A stretch of 15,604 bases of DNA from a virus (taxonomy: Duplodnaviria > Heunggongvirae > Uroviricota > Caudoviricetes), in the IMG/VR virus record IMGVR_UViG_2657245483_000005; one strand, written 5' to 3'. Positions 7,819 to 15,604 of this stretch are shown here, piece by piece. The position numbers and the translations under genes are program-made. The notes under the pieces were generated by a model. That model searched no databases. It saw only the letters and a program-made list of their open reading frames with translations, and had not been told where the DNA came from. Numbering within the stretch: position 1 is the stretch's first letter; each line of letters opens with the position of its first letter.

Positions 7819-8889
7819 ATGACTATTAACTGGAATCGCCATTTTGAACTGCGGCTTCTGAACGACAAGGGGAATGGCATATCCCTGTCGGACTTTAAAG
7901 TTACCTTCGCAATCGACTGGTTTAACTCGATGTGGCCACGTGTGGCGACGCTTAAAATTTACAACCTCAAGCGTGACACAATCACCCGGATTACGGGGGA
8001 TGAGTTTTCTCGCATTACCATCATAGCCGGTTATAACGGCCTGGCGCCGACGGTTACTGAAAGCGAGGTTGGGCAGGTTACCGAGATTTCATCTGAGCAA
8101 ACCGGCCAGACGCGCGGGCAAAATTACGGAGTCATTTTTGATGGGGAGATTCGTTTTACGATAACCGGGCGCGATAATCCTACCGATATTTTTACGCTAA
8201 TTCAGTCGGTAGATGGTCATAAGGCGTTCAACGAAGCCGTATCGTCCGGCAGCCTGGCGGCAGGATATAAGCTTGCCGACGTGCATACACTTCTGATGAA
8301 GGACTTTTCGCCTTACGGCATCACCCAGGGCATCACCGGGCAGTTCCCTGACAGGGTGATGCCACGCGGTCGCGTCTTCTTCGGCGCAACGCGCGACTAC
8401 ATGAGCAACCTAGCGGCGCAGTGCGAGGCTAACTGGCAATTTGTCGACGGCCAGCTGCAAATGGTGCCTGAGAATAAATATCTCCATGAAGCGATCGTGC
8501 TTAACACCAAAACTGGCCTGGTCGGTATGCCTCAGCAAACCATGGGGGCAGGCGTTAATGTGCGCTGTCTCATTAATCCAAACATTCGGGTTAACGGGCT
8601 TATTCAGTTGAACCAGGACTCGGTGTATCGCTCGCAATTACCGAACGATGAGATCCAAAGATCACAGGCAAGGATTACTGAGGCAAATGATAATGGTAAT
8701 CTTAGTACAGGCAGCGCGACGCTTGCGCAGCCCGCCAGTGTGGCAACTGATGGCGTTTACATAGTTCAGTCAATCAGCTACACCGGCGATACGAGAGGGA
8801 ATCCGTGGTATATGGATCTCATGTGTATGGCCAGAGGGGCGCGTGATTTACAATCGAATACGGCCCTACAGCGAACGGCTCCACAATGA
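7819..8889 (+). CDS. Baseplate hub protein (Mu gp44 / P2 gpD-like, tentative)
   Basis: 356-aa ORF located where the hub sits in Mu/P2-like baseplate modules, upstream of the spike, gpW-like, gpJ-like and gpI-like genes. Confidence 0.5.
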   Translation: MTINWNRHFELRLLNDKGNGISLSDFKVTFAIDWFNSMWPRVATLKIYNLKRDTITRITGDEFSRITIIAGYNGLAPTVTESEVGQVTEISSEQTGQTRGQNYGVIFDGEIRFTITGRDNPTDIFTLIQSVDGHKAFNEAVSSGSLAAGYKLADVHTLLMKDFSPYGITQGITGQFPDRVMPRGRVFFGATRDYMSNLAAQCEANWQFVDGQLQMVPENKYLHEAIVLNTKTGLVGMPQQTMGAGVNVRCLINPNIRVNGLIQLNQDSVYRSQLPNDEIQRSQARITEANDNGNLSTGSATLAQPASVATDGVYIVQSISYTGDTRGNPWYMDLMCMARGARDLQSNTALQRTAPQ

Positions 8890-9242
8890 AAAAAATACTT
8901 TTTTTGGTTTCTTTAGCATTCGTCAGTTTTTCTTCTACAGCGGCAAACACCGCTTATATGAAGTGTGGTCCCTTTACTTTCTCAACCTCATCAAGCAACG
9001 ACGGATATCCGAGGATAAACGGAGCAAAGCCTGATAGTCAGAAGGTGACATTCCTCAAAAAAGAGGGAGATTATGACAATATTAAAATGCAATGGATTGT
9101 CATGAATGAGAATTCTGGGCAGCGCTATGGTCTTGATTATATAAAACGCAATGGGAGAGGGATACTCAATGCCGAGGCCATCAGAATGAACATGAATGAA
9201 CCTCGAGTGTTTGGAACTTACGACTGCGTGAAGGCTAAGTAA
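8886..9242 (+). CDS. Small secreted protein of unknown function, cargo gene, AT-rich
   Basis: N-terminal signal peptide MKKILFLVSLAFVSFSSTAA with no lipobox, two Cys in the mature part, and composition sharply AT-richer than the flanking genes. The start overlaps the hub stop (ATGA at 8886-8889). Confidence 0.7.
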   Translation: MKKILFLVSLAFVSFSSTAANTAYMKCGPFTFSTSSSNDGYPRINGAKPDSQKVTFLKKEGDYDNIKMQWIVMNENSGQRYGLDYIKRNGRGILNAEAIRMNMNEPRVFGTYDCVKAK

Positions 9243-9251
9243 TTTAATAAA

Positions 9252-9272
9252 GGCGCCGGAACTACCGGCGCT
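9252..9272. terminator. GC-rich hairpin between convergent genes (candidate bidirectional terminator, better for the minus-strand gene)
   Basis: ggcgccgg / aacta / ccggcgct forms a 7-bp GC stem plus one G-U pair. On the minus strand it is followed by the U/A-rich tract ttattaaatt; on the plus strand the T-run is interrupted. Confidence 0.5.
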
Positions 9273-9275
9273 CAG

Positions 9276-9626
9276 TTACTCGTCTTTAAAACTTATAATT
9301 TTGTACTGCTCCAGTACTTCTGAAAGCTCCTTTGATGTCAGATTTTGTATTTCGATCGTACCTTTTTCAGTGGTTACCGTTATTTTTTTTGATGATCTGG
9401 TCTGTAACCATTTTCTCGCTATCGATGCAATGGCGATACAAGCTGGTGATGATGTGATAACGGTAATAGATATTTCGAGAATTGTGCCAATAGCGCCAGG
9501 AGAATCACCCGTTCTGACTCTTTTACTTACTACATAGTCATTAGCGGGTATGTTATCCTGGATTACAGGAAGTAACTCTTTCCAAATAGCTGGAGTAAAT
9601 TTTATGGTTGTTTCTGATTTTGGCAT
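9276..9626 (-). CDS. Hypothetical cytoplasmic protein, cargo gene, AT-rich
   Basis: 116-aa minus-strand ORF inside the AT-rich insertion, hydrophilic and balanced in composition. The plus-strand ORFs over the same DNA look like antisense junk. No strong RBS was seen, so the exact start is uncertain. Confidence 0.55.
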   Translation of the reverse strand: MPKSETTIKFTPAIWKELLPVIQDNIPANDYVVSKRVRTGDSPGAIGTILEISITVITSSPACIAIASIARKWLQTRSSKKITVTTEKGTIEIQNLTSKELSEVLEQYKIISFKDE

Positions 9627-9805
9627 AAAGGTTTCAGGCCCCTATCGAGAGAAGCTAAAAATTGCCTACCGGCTTTTCCTTAGCAGCCTGTATCTTGCTA
9701 CAAATCACGACGTTACCGTGGTTCTAAGCAAAACCTATATTAAGAGCTGCAATGAAGATAAATAGCACGCATTAACTCACCCTCAAATCCTGACATTTGA
9801 TCAGT

Positions 9806-9827
9806 AACCCGCCTCGGCGGGTTTTTT
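9806..9827 (+). terminator. Rho-independent terminator (plus strand)
   Basis: aacccgcc / tcg / ggcgggtt is a perfect 8-bp stem with a 3-nt loop, followed by tttttt; it ends 18 bp before the spike gene ATG. Confidence 0.75.
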
Positions 9828-9844
9828 ATTACCTGGAGAAAGCT

Positions 9845-10498
9845 ATGCCAGTATCAGCCCGCGCGCAGGACGGCAACGAATCGCAGACTCTTGAGGCGCA
9901 CCGCCACGCCATTTTCGGCAGCCTGCGCGTGGCTTTGCCGGGGATCATCCAGTCCTTTGACCCTGAAACAGTGACATGCACCGTGCAGCCAGCCATCTAC
10001 GGTCAGCGGCTCAGCGACGATGGCGCTCTGGTTTCTGAGGAGATACCGATTTTGCCAGACGTTCCAGTGGTGTTCCCCCGCGGCGGTGGCTGCACGTTAA
10101 CCTTCCCGGTAAAGGCCGGTGACGAGTGCCTCCTGGTCTTCTCCGATCGCTGCATCGACTTCTGGTGGCAGAGCGGCGGGGTGCAGGAACCGGTTGACCC
10201 GCGCCAGCATGACCTGAGTGATGCGTTTGCCATTGTGGGTCCGCAGTCGCAGGCGCAGAAAATCAGCAGCATCAGTACCAGTGCGGTTGAACTGCGCAGT
10301 GACGACGGTGGAACAAAACTGAGCCTTAACCCTTCATCCGGAGCGATAACGGGAACCGCGCCGGGAGGCTTCAACCTTAACGGTCTGAAAATTCTGCCTG
10401 ACGGCCGCCTGCAGCTGGTGGATGGCTCCATGGTTGATAAGCATACGCATGGCGGCGTGGAAGTCGGCGGCAGCAATACGAAACCACTGGGAGGGTAA
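9845..10498 (+). CDS. Baseplate central spike protein (gpV / Mu gp45-like)
   Basis: ATG at 9845 with GGAGA 7 nt upstream; the track's ATG at 9797 lies within the terminator. 217 aa, positioned after the hub, with an HxH motif (HTH, 10442-10450) near the C-terminus as in iron-binding spike apices. Confidence 0.55.
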   Translation: MPVSARAQDGNESQTLEAHRHAIFGSLRVALPGIIQSFDPETVTCTVQPAIYGQRLSDDGALVSEEIPILPDVPVVFPRGGGCTLTFPVKAGDECLLVFSDRCIDFWWQSGGVQEPVDPRQHDLSDAFAIVGPQSQAQKISSISTSAVELRSDDGGTKLSLNPSSGAITGTAPGGFNLNGLKILPDGRLQLVDGSMVDKHTHGGVEVGGSNTKPLGG

Positions 10499-12054: not shown

Positions 12055-12731
12055 GTAGGTACACGGATCTAATCACTAACTACCACGCCACTAAGCCGAA
12101 ATACCTCGATCACATCGATCTTAGTACCCGTCCCCTGATTGATATCACGTCAGCCACAAGGGGCCTGGTGAGTGCGTTTGACATTGATACGGCTGTTGGC
12201 GTGCAACTCGATATTCTCGGACTCTGGATTGGACGTAGCCGTATAGTCAGCCAGCCCATTAGTGGCGTTTATTTCAGTTGGGACACGGAGGGGCTCGGAT
12301 ATGACCAGGGCGTATGGCAGGGGCCATATGATCCTGACTCCGGCTATACGACGCTTAGCGATGATACCTATCGCACTATTCTGAAAGCAAAAATCGCTAT
12401 TAACAACTGGGACGGGCGTAACGACTCGCTTCCGGACATTCTTGACACTGCCACAGTGGGTTCGGGCCTGAAGATGCAGATCGTCGACAATCAGGACATG
12501 ACGATATCGGTCTGGGTATTTCCCGAGACTGATATTTCTGATGTGTCTCTCGAACTGATCGCCGCTATCAAACAGGGCTATCTCACCGTTAAAGCCGCTG
12601 GCGTCTGGGCCGGTGATGTTGAAATGCCTTCGGTTGAAACACCGTCCGAAGGAACAAAATTCTTTGGATTTGACATGGATAACGAATACATCGCCGGTTT
12701 TGATGACGGCGCATGGGGGAGATTACTTTAA
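12051..12731 (+). CDS. Baseplate wedge / tail-fibre attachment protein (gpI-like, DUF2612-like)
   Basis: ATGA overlap with the gpJ-like stop; 226 aa, immediately upstream of the tail fibre gene. Confidence 0.6.
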   Translation: MSRYTDLITNYHATKPKYLDHIDLSTRPLIDITSATRGLVSAFDIDTAVGVQLDILGLWIGRSRIVSQPISGVYFSWDTEGLGYDQGVWQGPYDPDSGYTTLSDDTYRTILKAKIAINNWDGRNDSLPDILDTATVGSGLKMQIVDNQDMTISVWVFPETDISDVSLELIAAIKQGYLTVKAAGVWAGDVEMPSVETPSEGTKFFGFDMDNEYIAGFDDGAWGRLL

Positions 12732-13510
12732 TGGCTGGAACTAATGATTTTAAAGCGTTTGCGACAGATGCTAATGCAAATGTTACCTCGCAGGAGGAAT
12801 GGGAGACGCTAACCGCACTGAAGAAAGGATTCTCCTCGGGTAAAGCATCCAGCGCACAGGTCAGTAAAGCGCTGCGCCAACCGTCGACGATGGCGGCTGT
12901 ACTGGGGCAGTTTATCGCGAACGCCGAACTGGACGCGCTCGATGATGGTGACGTTGATGGACTGGTGGCAAAGCTGGCGACAGCGATTACCACAAACCTT
13001 GGTTTGGGAGAAGGCTCAGCATTACCCGTTGGCGTACCTGTTCCGTGGCCTTCAGCCACACCGCCGACAGGCTGGCTGAAATGCAACGGTGCCGCTTTTT
13101 CTGCTGAAGAATACCCGGAACTGGCAAAGGCTTACCCGACAAATAAATTGCCTGATTTACGTGGTGAGTTTATTCGTGGCTGGGATGACGGGCGTGGAGT
13201 GGATAGCGGTCGTACTTTATTAACGAATCAAGAGCATGCAGTAATTTCTCATAATCATGGAATACCTACAAAAGTGGGGTCAGTTACTAATATCCCGTAT
13301 GGAATAGAACAGGTTATATCTGATGAAACCATTTTTTCATCAGCAAAAACAGTTGGTGTGGATTACTGGTCTAACAGTGAAAGAGTTTTTACTTATACCT
13401 CTGGTGGAAGAAATGGTGCTGAATCAGTGAGTTCACCTGATGCCTCCTCTTTAATTAAAGAAACCAGACCACGGAACCTAGCATTTGCGTATATCGTGAG
13501 GGCTGCATAA
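12731..13510 (+). CDS. Tail fibre protein: constant N-terminal part (codons 1-90) plus currently joined variable C-terminal part
   Basis: TAATG overlap start at 12731 (an alternative in-frame ATG lies at 12713). The C-terminal part contains LPDLRGEFIRGWDDGRGVDSGRTL, a collar-type motif I recall from tail fibre proteins. A crossover site sits at codons 86-94. Confidence 0.8.
   Translation: MAGTNDFKAFATDANANVTSQEEWETLTALKKGFSSGKASSAQVSKALRQPSTMAAVLGQFIANAELDALDDGDVDGLVAKLATAITTNLGLGEGSALPVGVPVPWPSATPPTGWLKCNGAAFSAEEYPELAKAYPTNKLPDLRGEFIRGWDDGRGVDSGRTLLTNQEHAVISHNHGIPTKVGSVTNIPYGIEQVISDETIFSSAKTVGVDYWSNSERVFTYTSGGRNGAESVSSPDASSLIKETRPRNLAFAYIVRAA
12987..13012. repeat. Left crossover site of the invertible segment (hix/gix-like 26-bp imperfect palindrome)
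   Basis: ttaccacaaaccttggtttgggagaa, central dinucleotide TT at 12999-13000. It is 21/26 identical to the reverse complement of the site at 14971-14996. Confidence 0.7.
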
Positions 13511-14112
13511 TGGTGAAAGCAAAATTAAACAGTGCGTTTATTGCCACCGTGGCAGGTGAAATCACTGTGTACAACTACCGGGGCGACACCCGCGAATACA
13601 TATCCTCATCGGTTGAGTATCTGCCTGTGGGGGTGGGTATTCCTGCCAATTCCTGTACCGATGCGCCCGGCACACATAAAGCTGGTTATGCAATCTGCCG
13701 TTCTGCAGATTTTAACTCATGGGAATATGTGCCAGACCATCGCGGTGAAACGGTATATAGCACTGAAACAGGAGAATCAAAAGAAATCACAGCTCCGGGT
13801 GATTACTCTGAAAATACAACTACTATCGCCCCGTTAACGCCATTCGATAAATGGGATGGTGAGAAATGGGTGACCGATACTGAGGCACAGCATAGCGCCG
13901 CAGTAGACGTGGCAGAAGCACAGCGCCAGTCGCTGATTGATGCTGCTATGGCTTCCATCAGTCTGATTCAGCTGAAATTGCAGGCCGGGCGGCAACTGAC
14001 GCAAGCAGAAATCACTCGCCTTAACGCTGTGCTGGATTACATTGACACGGTGACGGCAACAGATACCAGCACCGCGCCGGATGTCATCTGGCCTGAACTG
14101 CCGGAGGCGTAG
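13510..14112 (+). CDS. Tail fibre assembly protein (Mu U / lambda Tfa-like), currently expressed orientation
   Basis: TAATG overlap with the fibre stop; 200 aa; C-terminal LDYIDTV..DTSTAPDVIWPELP matches the conserved Tfa C-terminal pattern. Confidence 0.75.
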   Translation: MVKAKLNSAFIATVAGEITVYNYRGDTREYISSSVEYLPVGVGIPANSCTDAPGTHKAGYAICRSADFNSWEYVPDHRGETVYSTETGESKEITAPGDYSENTTTIAPLTPFDKWDGEKWVTDTEAQHSAAVDVAEAQRQSLIDAAMASISLIQLKLQAGRQLTQAEITRLNAVLDYIDTVTATDTSTAPDVIWPELPEA

Positions 14113-14527
14113 GCCATTCAATATCTGGAGCACTGGAGGTATCAACCAGTTCCAGTGCGTCCAGATAATCCAGCCACAAATTATATTGCGCCAGTTCCTC
14201 ACTTTTCAGACGACCAATCGCCGCTTTGCCAGGCCACTGATGAGTATTGATGTAGGTATTGACTTCAGAAACCAAAGATATTTTTTTCATTTCAGCCGTC
14301 AACACCTCATCCTCTTTTGAAGGGGGTGGGGAATTAATCCATACTGGCCGTCCTGAACTGTCAGCGCCAATTTCTTTCCCTTCTGGATGCAGCCCAAGAA
14401 ATTGCTCATATGTTTCTCTGGTAATTTCAATAACATCATCAGGAAGCGTTCCCGCATCCTCATATTCTGGAAACAATTCTTGCAGATAAAAACTTTTACT
14501 TCCGGGTGAAAAGAATACTGAGTTCAT
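14084..14527 (-). CDS. Alternative tail fibre assembly protein (U'-like)
   Basis: Minus-strand 147-aa ORF with C-terminal LDYLDALELVDTSSAPDIEWPTPP, matching the Tfa pattern; located directly downstream of the minus-strand fibre tip. Confidence 0.7.
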   Translation of the reverse strand: MNSVFFSPGSKSFYLQELFPEYEDAGTLPDDVIEITRETYEQFLGLHPEGKEIGADSSGRPVWINSPPPSKEDEVLTAEMKKISLVSEVNTYINTHQWPGKAAIGRLKSEELAQYNLWLDYLDALELVDTSSAPDIEWPTPPAVQAR

Positions 14528-14529
14528 TC

Positions 14530-14982
14530 TTACCGTCCAATGATTAATGCTGAGACGCTGGTATCTGAAGGAAAGGCTGCATTCAGTGGTTTGTCGACTT
14601 TGAACACAATCGTATTATTCCCCCTGACAGCGGCAAAAGAACAAACCGCAGTCGCGTATGAACCTGTAATATTACTGGATACACCACCATAAGCTGTTGT
14701 TGATACCAGAGGGATAACGCCCAGCACCTTATTAGGAAATACAAAGGGCAATGTGGCTGTGGCAATATAAGACTTATTAGAACCTGTAATGGCATAAGCA
14801 TTATCAGTCATTCCATTCATCGCCACCGGGCCGCTTATACTTACAGTAACCATCTGAATGATTAGCCCGTCAGGTTGACGAATCACAAAATTTCCATTGC
14901 CACCAGTAACCGTCCAGAAAGACATATCAGGGATTTGGTTTTCCCCGTTGCCCACATTCCGTTTTGCCGCTTCTCCCAAACC
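14530..14982 (-). CDS. Alternative tail fibre C-terminal cassette (Sv'-like), startless, fused to the fibre gene only after inversion
   Basis: Minus-strand frame open from the right crossover site to the stop at 14530. The sequence after the core encodes GLGE, the same residues that follow the core in the plus-strand fibre, and the frame matches. Confidence 0.7.
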   Translation of the reverse strand, partial: GLGEAAKRNVGNGENQIPDMSFWTVTGGNGNFVIRQPDGLIIQMVTVSISGPVAMNGMTDNAYAITGSNKSYIATATLPFVFPNKVLGVIPLVSTTAYGGVSSNITGSYATAVCSFAAVRGNNTIVFKVDKPLNAAFPSDTSVSALIIGR

Positions 14983-14996
14983 AACCTTTTTTATAA
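14971..14996. repeat. Right crossover site of the invertible segment (hix/gix-like)
   Basis: ttctcccaaaccaaccttttttataa, central AA at 14983-14984; the inner 14 bp are identical to the inner half of the left site in inverted orientation. It lies 60 bp upstream of the invertase ATG. Confidence 0.7.
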
Positions 14997-15026
14997 CCAT
15001 CAAAAATCTGGTGATGCTTCGCCGTT

Positions 15027-15049
15027 TCTCCTGTTTTCATAACAGGAGA
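15027..15049 (+). promoter_or_regulatory. Perfect 9-bp stem hairpin that includes the invertase Shine-Dalgarno
   Basis: tctcctgtt / ttcat / aacaggaga; the right arm contains AGGAG, 7 nt before the ATG at 15056. Confidence 0.5.
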
Positions 15050-15055
15050 AATCCC

Positions 15056-15604
15056 ATGATTTACGGTTATGCCCGAGTATCAACAAACCACCAGGACACT
15101 GAATTGCAACTAACGGCGCTCAAGTCAGCGGGTTGTGAGAAAATTTTTGAAGAGCATGCCAGCGGGAGGAAATCGAATCGGCCGGTTCTAAAACGGCTGA
15201 TCGCCACTATGCAGCCGGGGGATGAACTGGTGGTCTGGAAGCTGGACAGGATAGGCCGCAACGTTCTGCATGCGCTGTTGATGTTCCAGCAGTTACAGGA
15301 AAAGGGTATCAACTTCCGCAGTATTACCGATGGCGTGGATCTCAAAACAGCCAGCGGCCGCTATAACTTTCGTAACATCCTTTCCGCAGCACAATATGAA
15401 TCTGATCTTAATAGCGAACGTACCTTAGCAGGGCTGGCCGTAGCCAGGGCAAAAGGGCGAGTTGGTGGTCGCAGGCCTAAGTTCACGGATGAGCAATGGC
15501 GGGAAATGGGGGAGCGGATGGCAACCGGTGAATCACGACAAAGCGTATCAAAAACGTATGGAGTAGGGCTCTCAACTCTGTATAAAAAGTTTCCAGCTAG
15601 CTGA
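15056..15604 (+). CDS. Serine DNA invertase (Hin/Gin/Cin/Pin family)
   Basis: Starts MIYGYARVSTNHQDTELQ, with the catalytic Ser in the RVST motif, and has a C-terminal helix-turn-helix (GESRQSVSKTYGVGLSTLYKKFPA). The track ORF begins at 14897, but the family-conserved N-terminus and RBS place the start at 15056. The stop is at the window end. Confidence 0.93.
   Translation: MIYGYARVSTNHQDTELQLTALKSAGCEKIFEEHASGRKSNRPVLKRLIATMQPGDELVVWKLDRIGRNVLHALLMFQQLQEKGINFRSITDGVDLKTASGRYNFRNILSAAQYESDLNSERTLAGLAVARAKGRVGGRRPKFTDEQWREMGERMATGESRQSVSKTYGVGLSTLYKKFPAS

Follow-up and report, generated by a model that had tools for sequence, protein, structure and literature searches.

The stretch of DNA analysed here (the window) comprises 15,604 nucleotides (nt) of a tailed virus (Caudoviricetes; IMG/VR record IMGVR_UViG_2657245483_000005), and its sequence is 100% identical to a lambdoid prophage of Escherichia coli strain Res13-Sevr-PER07-33. 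Between the hub and spike genes of the tail operon, a gene on the minus strand encodes a protein of 116 amino acids (aa), recorded in RefSeq under the name of the EACC1 family, and its start is overlapped by that of a 53-aa gene on the plus strand, termed small53. The two genes most likely form a prophage-carried defence or cell-killing cassette. The locus has the following features.

9276 to 9626, minus strand: open reading frame (ORF) with its translation, the gene for the 116-aa EACC1-family protein (RefSeq WP_053271602.1, 'effector-associated constant component EACC1').
9504 to 9626, minus strand: its N-terminal β-α-β unit (aa 1-41), delimited by an AlphaFold2 (AF2) model and the family alignment and ending at Asp41 of an 'RTxDS' linker.
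9279 to 9503, minus strand: its remaining C-terminal part (aa 42-116), which includes the hydrophobic small-residue helix TSSPACIAIASIA (aa 58-70), delimited by hydropathy and conservation.
9383 to 9390, minus strand: run of eight A residues (T8 on the plus strand) within the codons for SSKKIT, a hot spot of frameshifts.
9604 to 9765, plus strand: small53, 53 aa (MVVSDFGIKVSGPYREKLKIAYRLFLSSLYLATNHDVTVVLSKTYIKSCNEDK), in the direction of the late operon, with GGAG at 9592-9595, 8 nt upstream of its ATG.
9253 to 9271, minus strand: hairpin resembling an intrinsic terminator of the EACC1-like gene, directly after its stop codon, with seven G-C pairs followed by CTTTATT.
9789 to 9827, plus strand: conserved 24-nt block running into a terminator hairpin (9806-9823) and a T-run, found by a terminator scan (CCTGACATTTGATCAGTAACCCGC).

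An intact ORF for 116 aa with an ATG start is present at 9276-9626 on the minus strand, as the original prediction from the sequence had it. In the table of the Prokaryotic Genome Annotation Pipeline (PGAP) for the 100% identical E. coli record, it is also, as predicted, the sole annotated minus-strand gene ahead of the invertible tail-fibre segment. It is a real gene, because orthologues of full length occupy the equivalent site in E. coli, Citrobacter, Enterobacter, Klebsiella and Kosakonia prophages and in Hafnia phage yong1, because the pairwise ratio of non-synonymous to synonymous substitution rates (dN/dS) of 0.08-0.17 indicates purifying selection, because substitutions cluster at codon position 3, and because the competing ORF at 9301-9537 contains stop codons in homologous loci. 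This plus-strand ORF, which had been named as one of two that might be translated should the minus-strand gene fail, is broken in loci L007, L003 and L005 and is rejected as the true gene. The length of the EACC1-like gene is kept intact down to 28% identity within the same slot, and the gene is intact in all the related prophages checked, save three homopolymer frameshift variants. In E. coli ES7 and NCTC11023, a -1 frameshift in the A8 run leaves a truncated protein of 81 aa, and a +1 frameshift at the same run occurs in IMG/VR locus L032, which carries another allele. Since ES7 and NCTC11023 share a single-nucleotide polymorphism at 9241, their frameshift represents one inherited event. Such frameshifts may come from selection against a dangerous gene, or just from slippage. 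The Shine-Dalgarno sequence is poor, again as predicted: a single G-rich run, AGGGG, ends 12 nt ahead of the ATG.

The protein had been left without a function, and it can now be said to belong very probably to the EACC1 family, a name already known in that PGAP and RefSeq have given it to this protein. The profile search that had been proposed as a check matches Pfam PF19953 (EACC1) with 29.1 bits against a gathering score of 23.6 (E=1.1e-6), aa 37-106 aligning with profile positions 26-104 of 107 (79/107 positions covered); the same profile is matched by 14 of the 22 family members. When a profile of the close family is compared by hhalign with P0035, an EACC1 protein linked to a caspase, the probability is 95%. 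The gene for P0035 lies 15 nt upstream of a 595-aa Peptidase_C14 gene, and served as a positive control for a protease neighbour. The EACC1 passages of Kaur et al. (2020; PMC7159879) describe a small protein of about 110-125 aa with one conserved transmembrane helix bearing a patch of small residues, together with flanking α+β elements. The order of strands and helices predicted for the 116-aa protein matches the architecture given in those passages. The stretch at residues 52-70 is the most conserved part of the family, with TSSPACIAIASI invariant; the invariant positions run from T58 to I69, with K72-W73 in addition. The original prediction had described the protein as hydrophilic, with no transmembrane segment. 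This does not hold, as residues 46-71 bear the conserved EACC1 hydrophobic helix of small residues, and the Kyte-Doolittle hydropathy peaks at a mean of 1.83 over residues 52-70. Searches of the NCBIfam models gave no match for either the 116-aa or the 53-aa protein, and structure searches with the 116-aa protein returned no solved or viral relative.

The AF2 model of the protein has a mean predicted local distance difference test score (pLDDT) of 73. It consists of a β-α-β unit (aa 5-38; strand 5-10, helix 12-25, strand 31-38), a low-confidence loop (aa 39-47), a β strand, the hydrophobic helix (aa 61-76) and a β-β-α-β arrangement. Asp41 sits in the low-pLDDT loop and is invariant in all the prophage-slot sequences examined. 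In the alignment with the caspase-linked P0035 it falls opposite the Asp of 'LHGDF', which places an Asp at the linker position where KrEACC1 is cut by its cognate caspase. According to the KrEACC1 passages of a recent preprint, the EACC1 protein of Ktedonobacter is an autoinhibited monomer that is cleaved by its caspase at Asp49; toxicity is confined to the C-terminal fragment, while the N-terminal fragment is inhibitory and the full-length protein is non-toxic (Evans et al., 2025; bioRxiv 10.1101/2025.11.14.688446). The same passages report that the caspase-cleaved protein permeabilises liposomes and forms membrane pores (bioRxiv 10.1101/2025.11.14.688446). By analogy, aa 1-41 of the prophage protein are presumed to be the autoinhibitory fragment and aa 42-116 the pore-forming fragment.

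The region 9627-9800 had been taken as free of ORFs. It holds most of small53, which is kept in 17/17 IMG/VR loci scored for it, with a dN/dS of 0.05-0.15. Small53 and the EACC1-like gene are reverse complements of each other over their first 23 nt, so that the two starts overlap head to head. This overlap is identical in 17/17 IMG/VR loci scored and measures 20-23 nt in divergent allelic types, about 20 nt in one of them. By tblastn or direct look-up, small53 is kept in loci of E. coli, Citrobacter, Enterobacter and Klebsiella, and its proteins fall into 14 clusters, Klebsiella among them. The plus-strand ORF at 9550-9765 had been offered as another frame that might be translated in place of the minus-strand gene. 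It proves real only in its shorter form from ATG 9604, and does not displace the minus-strand gene; the 71-aa form from 9550 is rejected, since the ATG at 9550 is not conserved whereas ATG 9604 and the GGAG are conserved across the aligned loci. In the same genome pairs, the synonymous divergence of small53 is about one-third of that of the EACC1-like gene (e.g. 0.34 vs 0.96), which hints at regulatory signals of the opposite strand embedded in it. Small53 matched no family in Pfam, PHROG or PADLOC.

That small53 might be a paralogue or mimic of the EACC1 N-domain, generated by inverted duplication, was considered and rejected: the hhalign probability is 0.07, Smith-Waterman scores are no better than those of shuffled sequences for five allele pairs (p >= 0.47), and no inverted DNA repeat supports such an origin. 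Annotation of the pair is inconsistent. Pipelines seldom annotate both overlapping genes but pick one of them, and the gene callers of some assemblies truncate or drop one; PGAP leaves the intact EACC1-like gene out of NZ_CP109924.1 and the 53-aa gene out of NZ_CP062811.1. Loci with such inconsistencies include L002 (8091-8441), L001 (12905-13063) and L076 (3321-3492).

The EACC1-like gene and small53 always occur together. At least three deeply diverged allelic types share the slot, namely the type of the window, a Kosakonia/Hafnia type (28% identity) and a 122-aa type (37% identity). Each has its own diverged small partner, the pair having diverged together to 28-37% identity of the EACC1-like protein, and thus the two genes co-evolve. 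Each close member lies between the spike gene and a gene for a signal-peptide protein of about 111-118 aa that follows the hub gene. The family is small and almost entirely prophage-bound: a word-based search found nine clusters at 90% identity among 5.8 billion proteins, and 25 representatives emerged from an exhaustive profile search of 1.84 billion proteins. Phage records of INPHARED gave no megablast or tblastn match with the allele of the window, and the cultured Hafnia phage yong1 was found only via the conserved 24-nt block. In yong1 the EACC1-like gene is gp68, and its 52-aa partner is unannotated, the annotated gp69 being in another frame. Distant orphan homologues, which have neither a protease nor a small partner nor the linker Asp, occur in Pseudomonas, Uliginosibacterium and Pseudoxanthomonas and in a metagenomic integrative island. 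The orphan of Pseudomonas sp. BN102 adjoins genes for an AriA/OLD-like ATPase and an Abi_C protein, and that of the integrative island adjoins GajB, a Gp49/HTH pair and an integrase (neighbourhoods at L013 1694-6351 and L037 2588-4720).

The cassette has terminators on both sides. On the minus strand, the hairpin at 9271-9253 has a folding energy of -16.2 kcal/mol (z = -2.8), and homologues preserve its stem, L003 with one double, compensatory change. On the plus strand, the 24-nt block (CCTGAYATTTGATCAGTARCCCGC) lies 26 nt past the stop codon of small53 and contains a GATC site. The terminator that follows (9806-9827; fold z = -3.2) ends 8 nt ahead of the GGAG (9835-9838) of the spike gene, of which the ATG is at 9845. 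Among 13 variants the stem of its CCCGC/GCGGG hairpin is invariant while the loop varies; these variants show no covariation, because the stem never varies. Of the 34 IMG/VR loci in which the 24-nt block was found, 26 have this cassette; the remaining loci carry other, unrelated antisense cargo, in one case a 151-aa gene of phrog_26342. Three loci with the block have a ClpP/head-protease-like gene within a Mu-like tail operon. In the window and in L042-L075 the block is fused to the hairpin just ahead of the ribosome binding site of the next tail gene. Together they look like a portable terminator or moron boundary.

Promoters were sought by a tool scan and by our own weight-matrix scan of eight aligned loci. 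The only conserved promoter-like hit on the minus strand, ATGCCA-16-TAAAAT (-10 ending at 9599), falls within the ORF, where two overlapping frames constrain the sequence. The 24-nt block was likewise tried as an antisense promoter; the -10-like hexamers that follow it differ between cargo types in both placement and quality, and so a promoter role is not supported. A search of Rfam over 9150-9900 revealed no known RNA family, the single hit being a sub-threshold one to sroD (17.7 bits vs 50).

The prophage of strain Res13-Sevr-PER07-33 is 45 kb in size and is inserted between kch and yciI-tonB. Its late region codes for a contractile tail of the E217/Pam3 type, with genes in the order sheath, tube, chaperone, tape measure, Dit-like protein, plug, hub, spike, sheath initiator, baseplate J and wedge, and further downstream tail-fibre genes that are accompanied by an invertible segment and a recombinase of the Gin type. 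In the window, the tail-fibre region (12713-15604) has paired, opposite-facing tail-fibre-assembly genes and a Resolvase/HTH_7 recombinase, in line with the invertible segment assumed by the original prediction. The lysis region encodes a holin, a lysozyme and an Rz1-like lysis protein (LysC), and the early region encodes a Q-type antitermination protein. Since the prophage is lambdoid and has this antiterminator, late transcription would be able to pass both terminators of the cassette.

Within the tail operon the cassette forms an island of low G+C content (about 40% vs 55-60% in the flanking DNA). It is thus an insert between conserved late genes that deviates in base composition, and it is replaced in relatives, L065 having other cargo in the equivalent slot between hub and spike. 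In some Klebsiella prophages (L039 and L040, 5377-5907) a gene with a KilA-N domain is inserted between the 53-aa gene and the spike gene, so that the hub-spike junction is a hot spot for accessory genes. The product of the adjoining gene at 8886-9242 on the plus strand is 118 aa long, begins with a signal peptide and matches phrog_3443 but no Pfam family. The gene starts by overlapping the stop codon of the hub gene (ATGA), has the same low G+C content as the cassette, and is found in most related loci regardless of the cargo. It may be a second accessory gene with a periplasmic product.

According to the passages of Kaur et al. on 'System 4', the EACC1 gene is always followed by a caspase-fused gene (PMC7159879). 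Downstream of the prophage gene there are only the terminator and the opposite-facing tail genes. No protease was found in the cassette, none is annotated in the 45-kb prophage, and none was seen in the homologous loci examined; nor did the prophage-slot loci examined contain the sensor or effector domains that are fused to such a protease (STAND/Avs, DGR, DnaK-like and others). The adjacent protease by which an EACC1-caspase system is defined was thus sought here and is missing, so the cassette is not such a system.

The best explanation of these features is the following proposed course of events. In the lysogen, the minus-strand gene would be transcribed alone, from a promoter inside or just beyond the 53-aa gene, to the hairpin at 9271-9253. 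Translation would be weak because of the poor Shine-Dalgarno sequence, and the product would be a soluble latent protoxin, while the flanking terminators would keep the cassette insulated from the tail genes. Superinfection or stress would then provide a trigger that frees the C-terminal 75 residues, most likely by cleavage between Asp41 and Ser42 in the exposed linker by a protease encoded elsewhere, or alternatively by displacement of the N-domain. The freed fragment is predicted to oligomerise via the hydrophobic small-residue helix, to permeabilise the inner membrane, and thereby to abort the infection. In the lytic cycle of the prophage itself, Q-antiterminated late transcription would run antisense across the toxin gene and express the 53-aa protein; transcript and protein would silence or neutralise the toxin and avert self-killing, as in the Tha/Ith system (PMC11087260). 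That the 53-aa protein itself inhibits the toxin is a tentative proposal by analogy, with the odds somewhat against it.

It is established here that the protein is a member of the family, that both genes are under purifying selection, that their overlap is fixed, that terminators flank the cassette, that its slot is conserved and that no protease is annotated; the model of defence by abortive infection that builds on these points is given, as a whole, a probability of roughly 0.5. The association of orphan homologues with defence genes, either the AriA/OLD-like ATPase and Abi_C or GajB, speaks for it, as does the retention of Asp41 in the prophage slot and its loss from the non-phage orphans. 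The anatomy of a moron, with low G+C content, its own terminators, opposite orientation and a Q antiterminator in the prophage, points the same way. That anatomy bears out in part the original prediction of a unit expressible from the lysogen independently of late transcription.

Other observations weigh on the opposite side. The promoter postulated for such a unit was not located: no conserved sigma-70 promoter is found on the minus strand in 9627-9860, where the best scores are weak and their positions not conserved. Neither the cassette nor the prophage has an annotated protease that could act as the trigger, and Asp41 could be conserved for structural reasons. The AF2 model of small53, a single long helix, is of low confidence (pLDDT 64), and the protein has no detectable similarity to the EACC1 N-domain. 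None of the PADLOC models of defence systems matches the 116-aa or the 53-aa protein. The cassette is rare, being present in 12/5426 complete E. coli genomes, and a scan with peptide patterns of the close family met one locus in 185,579 species-representative genomes. The existence of frameshifted copies shows that the gene is dispensable in some hosts.

The same two genes might instead be a toxin-antitoxin pair that stabilises the prophage, in which an EACC1-like membrane toxin is countered by the 53-aa protein or by an antisense transcript as a labile antidote, and loss of the prophage kills the cell. A divergent, overlapping two-gene cassette with strict co-occurrence and co-divergence would suit such a pair, as would the weak translation signals of the toxin gene and its frameshifts, which are typical of toxin-antitoxin decay. 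The toxin family is moreover a proven killer, according to the KrEACC1 passages (bioRxiv 10.1101/2025.11.14.688446). However, the putative antidote gene is oriented along the late operon and lacks its own conserved promoter, so that a constitutive supply of antidote in the lysogen is doubtful. EACC1 proteins, as those passages have it, possess their own autoinhibitory domain and are non-toxic at full length (bioRxiv 10.1101/2025.11.14.688446), the linker Asp is kept, and neither gene matches a toxin-antitoxin family. The probability of this explanation is low, if appreciable. Its type I variant, with an antisense RNA as the antidote, is rejected, since the opposite-strand partner has a dN/dS of 0.05-0.15 and a conserved Shine-Dalgarno sequence and ATG, and there is no Rfam match.

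A role in the lytic cycle of the phage itself, as an accessory holin or a lysis-timing factor, is improbable. It would agree with a family of membrane pore-formers located in a late region, but the gene is antisense to the late operon, so that late transcription would oppose its expression; the phage already has the complete lysis cassette described above, and the gene belongs to a strain-variable insert of low G+C content. Quite improbable, too, is an anti-defence decoy, a substrate mimic that would soak up host caspase-like proteases of EACC1-caspase systems. The Asp linker, equivalent to the cleavage site, is indeed retained in a cassette that has no protease of its own. Such systems are, however, mainly actinobacterial and found in multicellular bacteria, with only sporadic occurrence in proteobacteria, as described in the passages on their distribution (PMC7159879). 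The most conserved part is the pore-forming helix, which a decoy does not need and which would make it dangerous, and the orientation of the gene suggests expression in the lysogen, not in early infection. Lastly, it is very improbable that the minus-strand ORF is spurious or decaying and that the plus-strand ORFs are the sole real genes, a proposal which might appeal to the omission of the gene by PGAP from some records and to the frameshifted alleles, but which is already largely refuted by the purifying selection with its third-position bias, the length held intact in the slot, the Pfam match over its cut-off and the stop codons in 9301-9537.

A more specific version of the defence model is that the EACC1-like and 53-aa genes constitute a previously undescribed two-gene prophage defence system. 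Its protoxin would be uncoupled from a dedicated protease and triggered by an activity of foreign or host origin, such as a protease of a superinfecting phage that cuts after Asp41. The carrier would be protected by a switch-off through the late-strand partner and antisense late transcription, and the cassette would travel between tail operons with the 24-nt terminator module. Taken with all these elements, this version is rather unlikely. It was not until late 2025 that EACC1 was demonstrated to be a pore-forming death effector gated by a protease, to judge from the KrEACC1 passages (bioRxiv 10.1101/2025.11.14.688446). All the EACC1 systems described in the passages of the two sources couple it to a caspase-like protease (PMC7159879; bioRxiv 10.1101/2025.11.14.688446). 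The enterobacterial prophage clade breaks this pattern, in that the linker Asp and the pore helix are kept, the protease is lost, and an overlapping partner is gained. A protease-less prophage clade, a fixed antisense position in a tail operon and an overlapping 53-aa partner are not described in the EACC1 passages of the EACC1 literature found. The clade raises the question of what licenses a protoxin that has no encoded cognate protease. The cultured Hafnia phage yong1, which carries the cassette, is an experimental handle for this question, and the overlapping pair also exposes annotation errors of the pipelines. If the model is true, the cassette would be a second independent case in which a phage pairs an abortive-infection effector with an overlapping antisense off-switch against autoimmunity.

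Among known systems, the nearest in protein sequence is the EACC1-caspase System 4, including KrEACC1-KrAvs12. As far as the passages on these systems go, they share with the prophage cassette a homologous protein of about 115-120 aa, a hydrophobic helix of small residues, a linker Asp, and a predicted N-terminal inhibitory unit followed by a C-terminal effector. The prophage gene differs in having no adjacent or annotated caspase or other protease and in lying antisense in a phage tail operon; in those passages the hosts are actinobacteria or other multicellular bacteria and the canonical systems have no overlapping 53-aa gene, whereas here the host is an enterobacterium and such a gene is present.

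The nearest parallel in gene arrangement is the 'noncontiguous operon' of Tha and Ith in Staphylococcus aureus prophages, where a small overlapping antisense gene averts autoimmunity on induction (Rostol et al., 2024; PMC11087260). In both cases a prophage effector of cell killing is paired with a small opposite-strand gene that overlaps it (PMC11087260); in the cassette this small gene is conserved along with the effector. The proteins are unrelated, Tha being a HEPN RNase and not a member of the EACC1 family. The tha gene is located in the cI operon near int and not in a tail operon, the genes are nested and not overlapping head to head at their starts, and inhibition by the small protein is proven there, while for small53 it is inferred (PMC11087260).

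Bacterial gasdermins with their protease, and Pepco, resemble the EACC1-like protein, as far as the descriptions drawn upon here extend, in being latent pore-formers held inactive by a removable segment. They are always encoded beside a protease, and have no relation in sequence or fold to the EACC1-like protein.

Morons in the late operons of lambdoid phages include HK97 gp15 and the lom and bor genes of lambda, and are usually single genes oriented along with the late operon. The cassette resembles them as an insert of low G+C content between conserved tail genes, with its own terminators and plausibly expressed from the prophage, and differs from them as a divergent, overlapping unit of two genes, one of which belongs to a family of death effectors.

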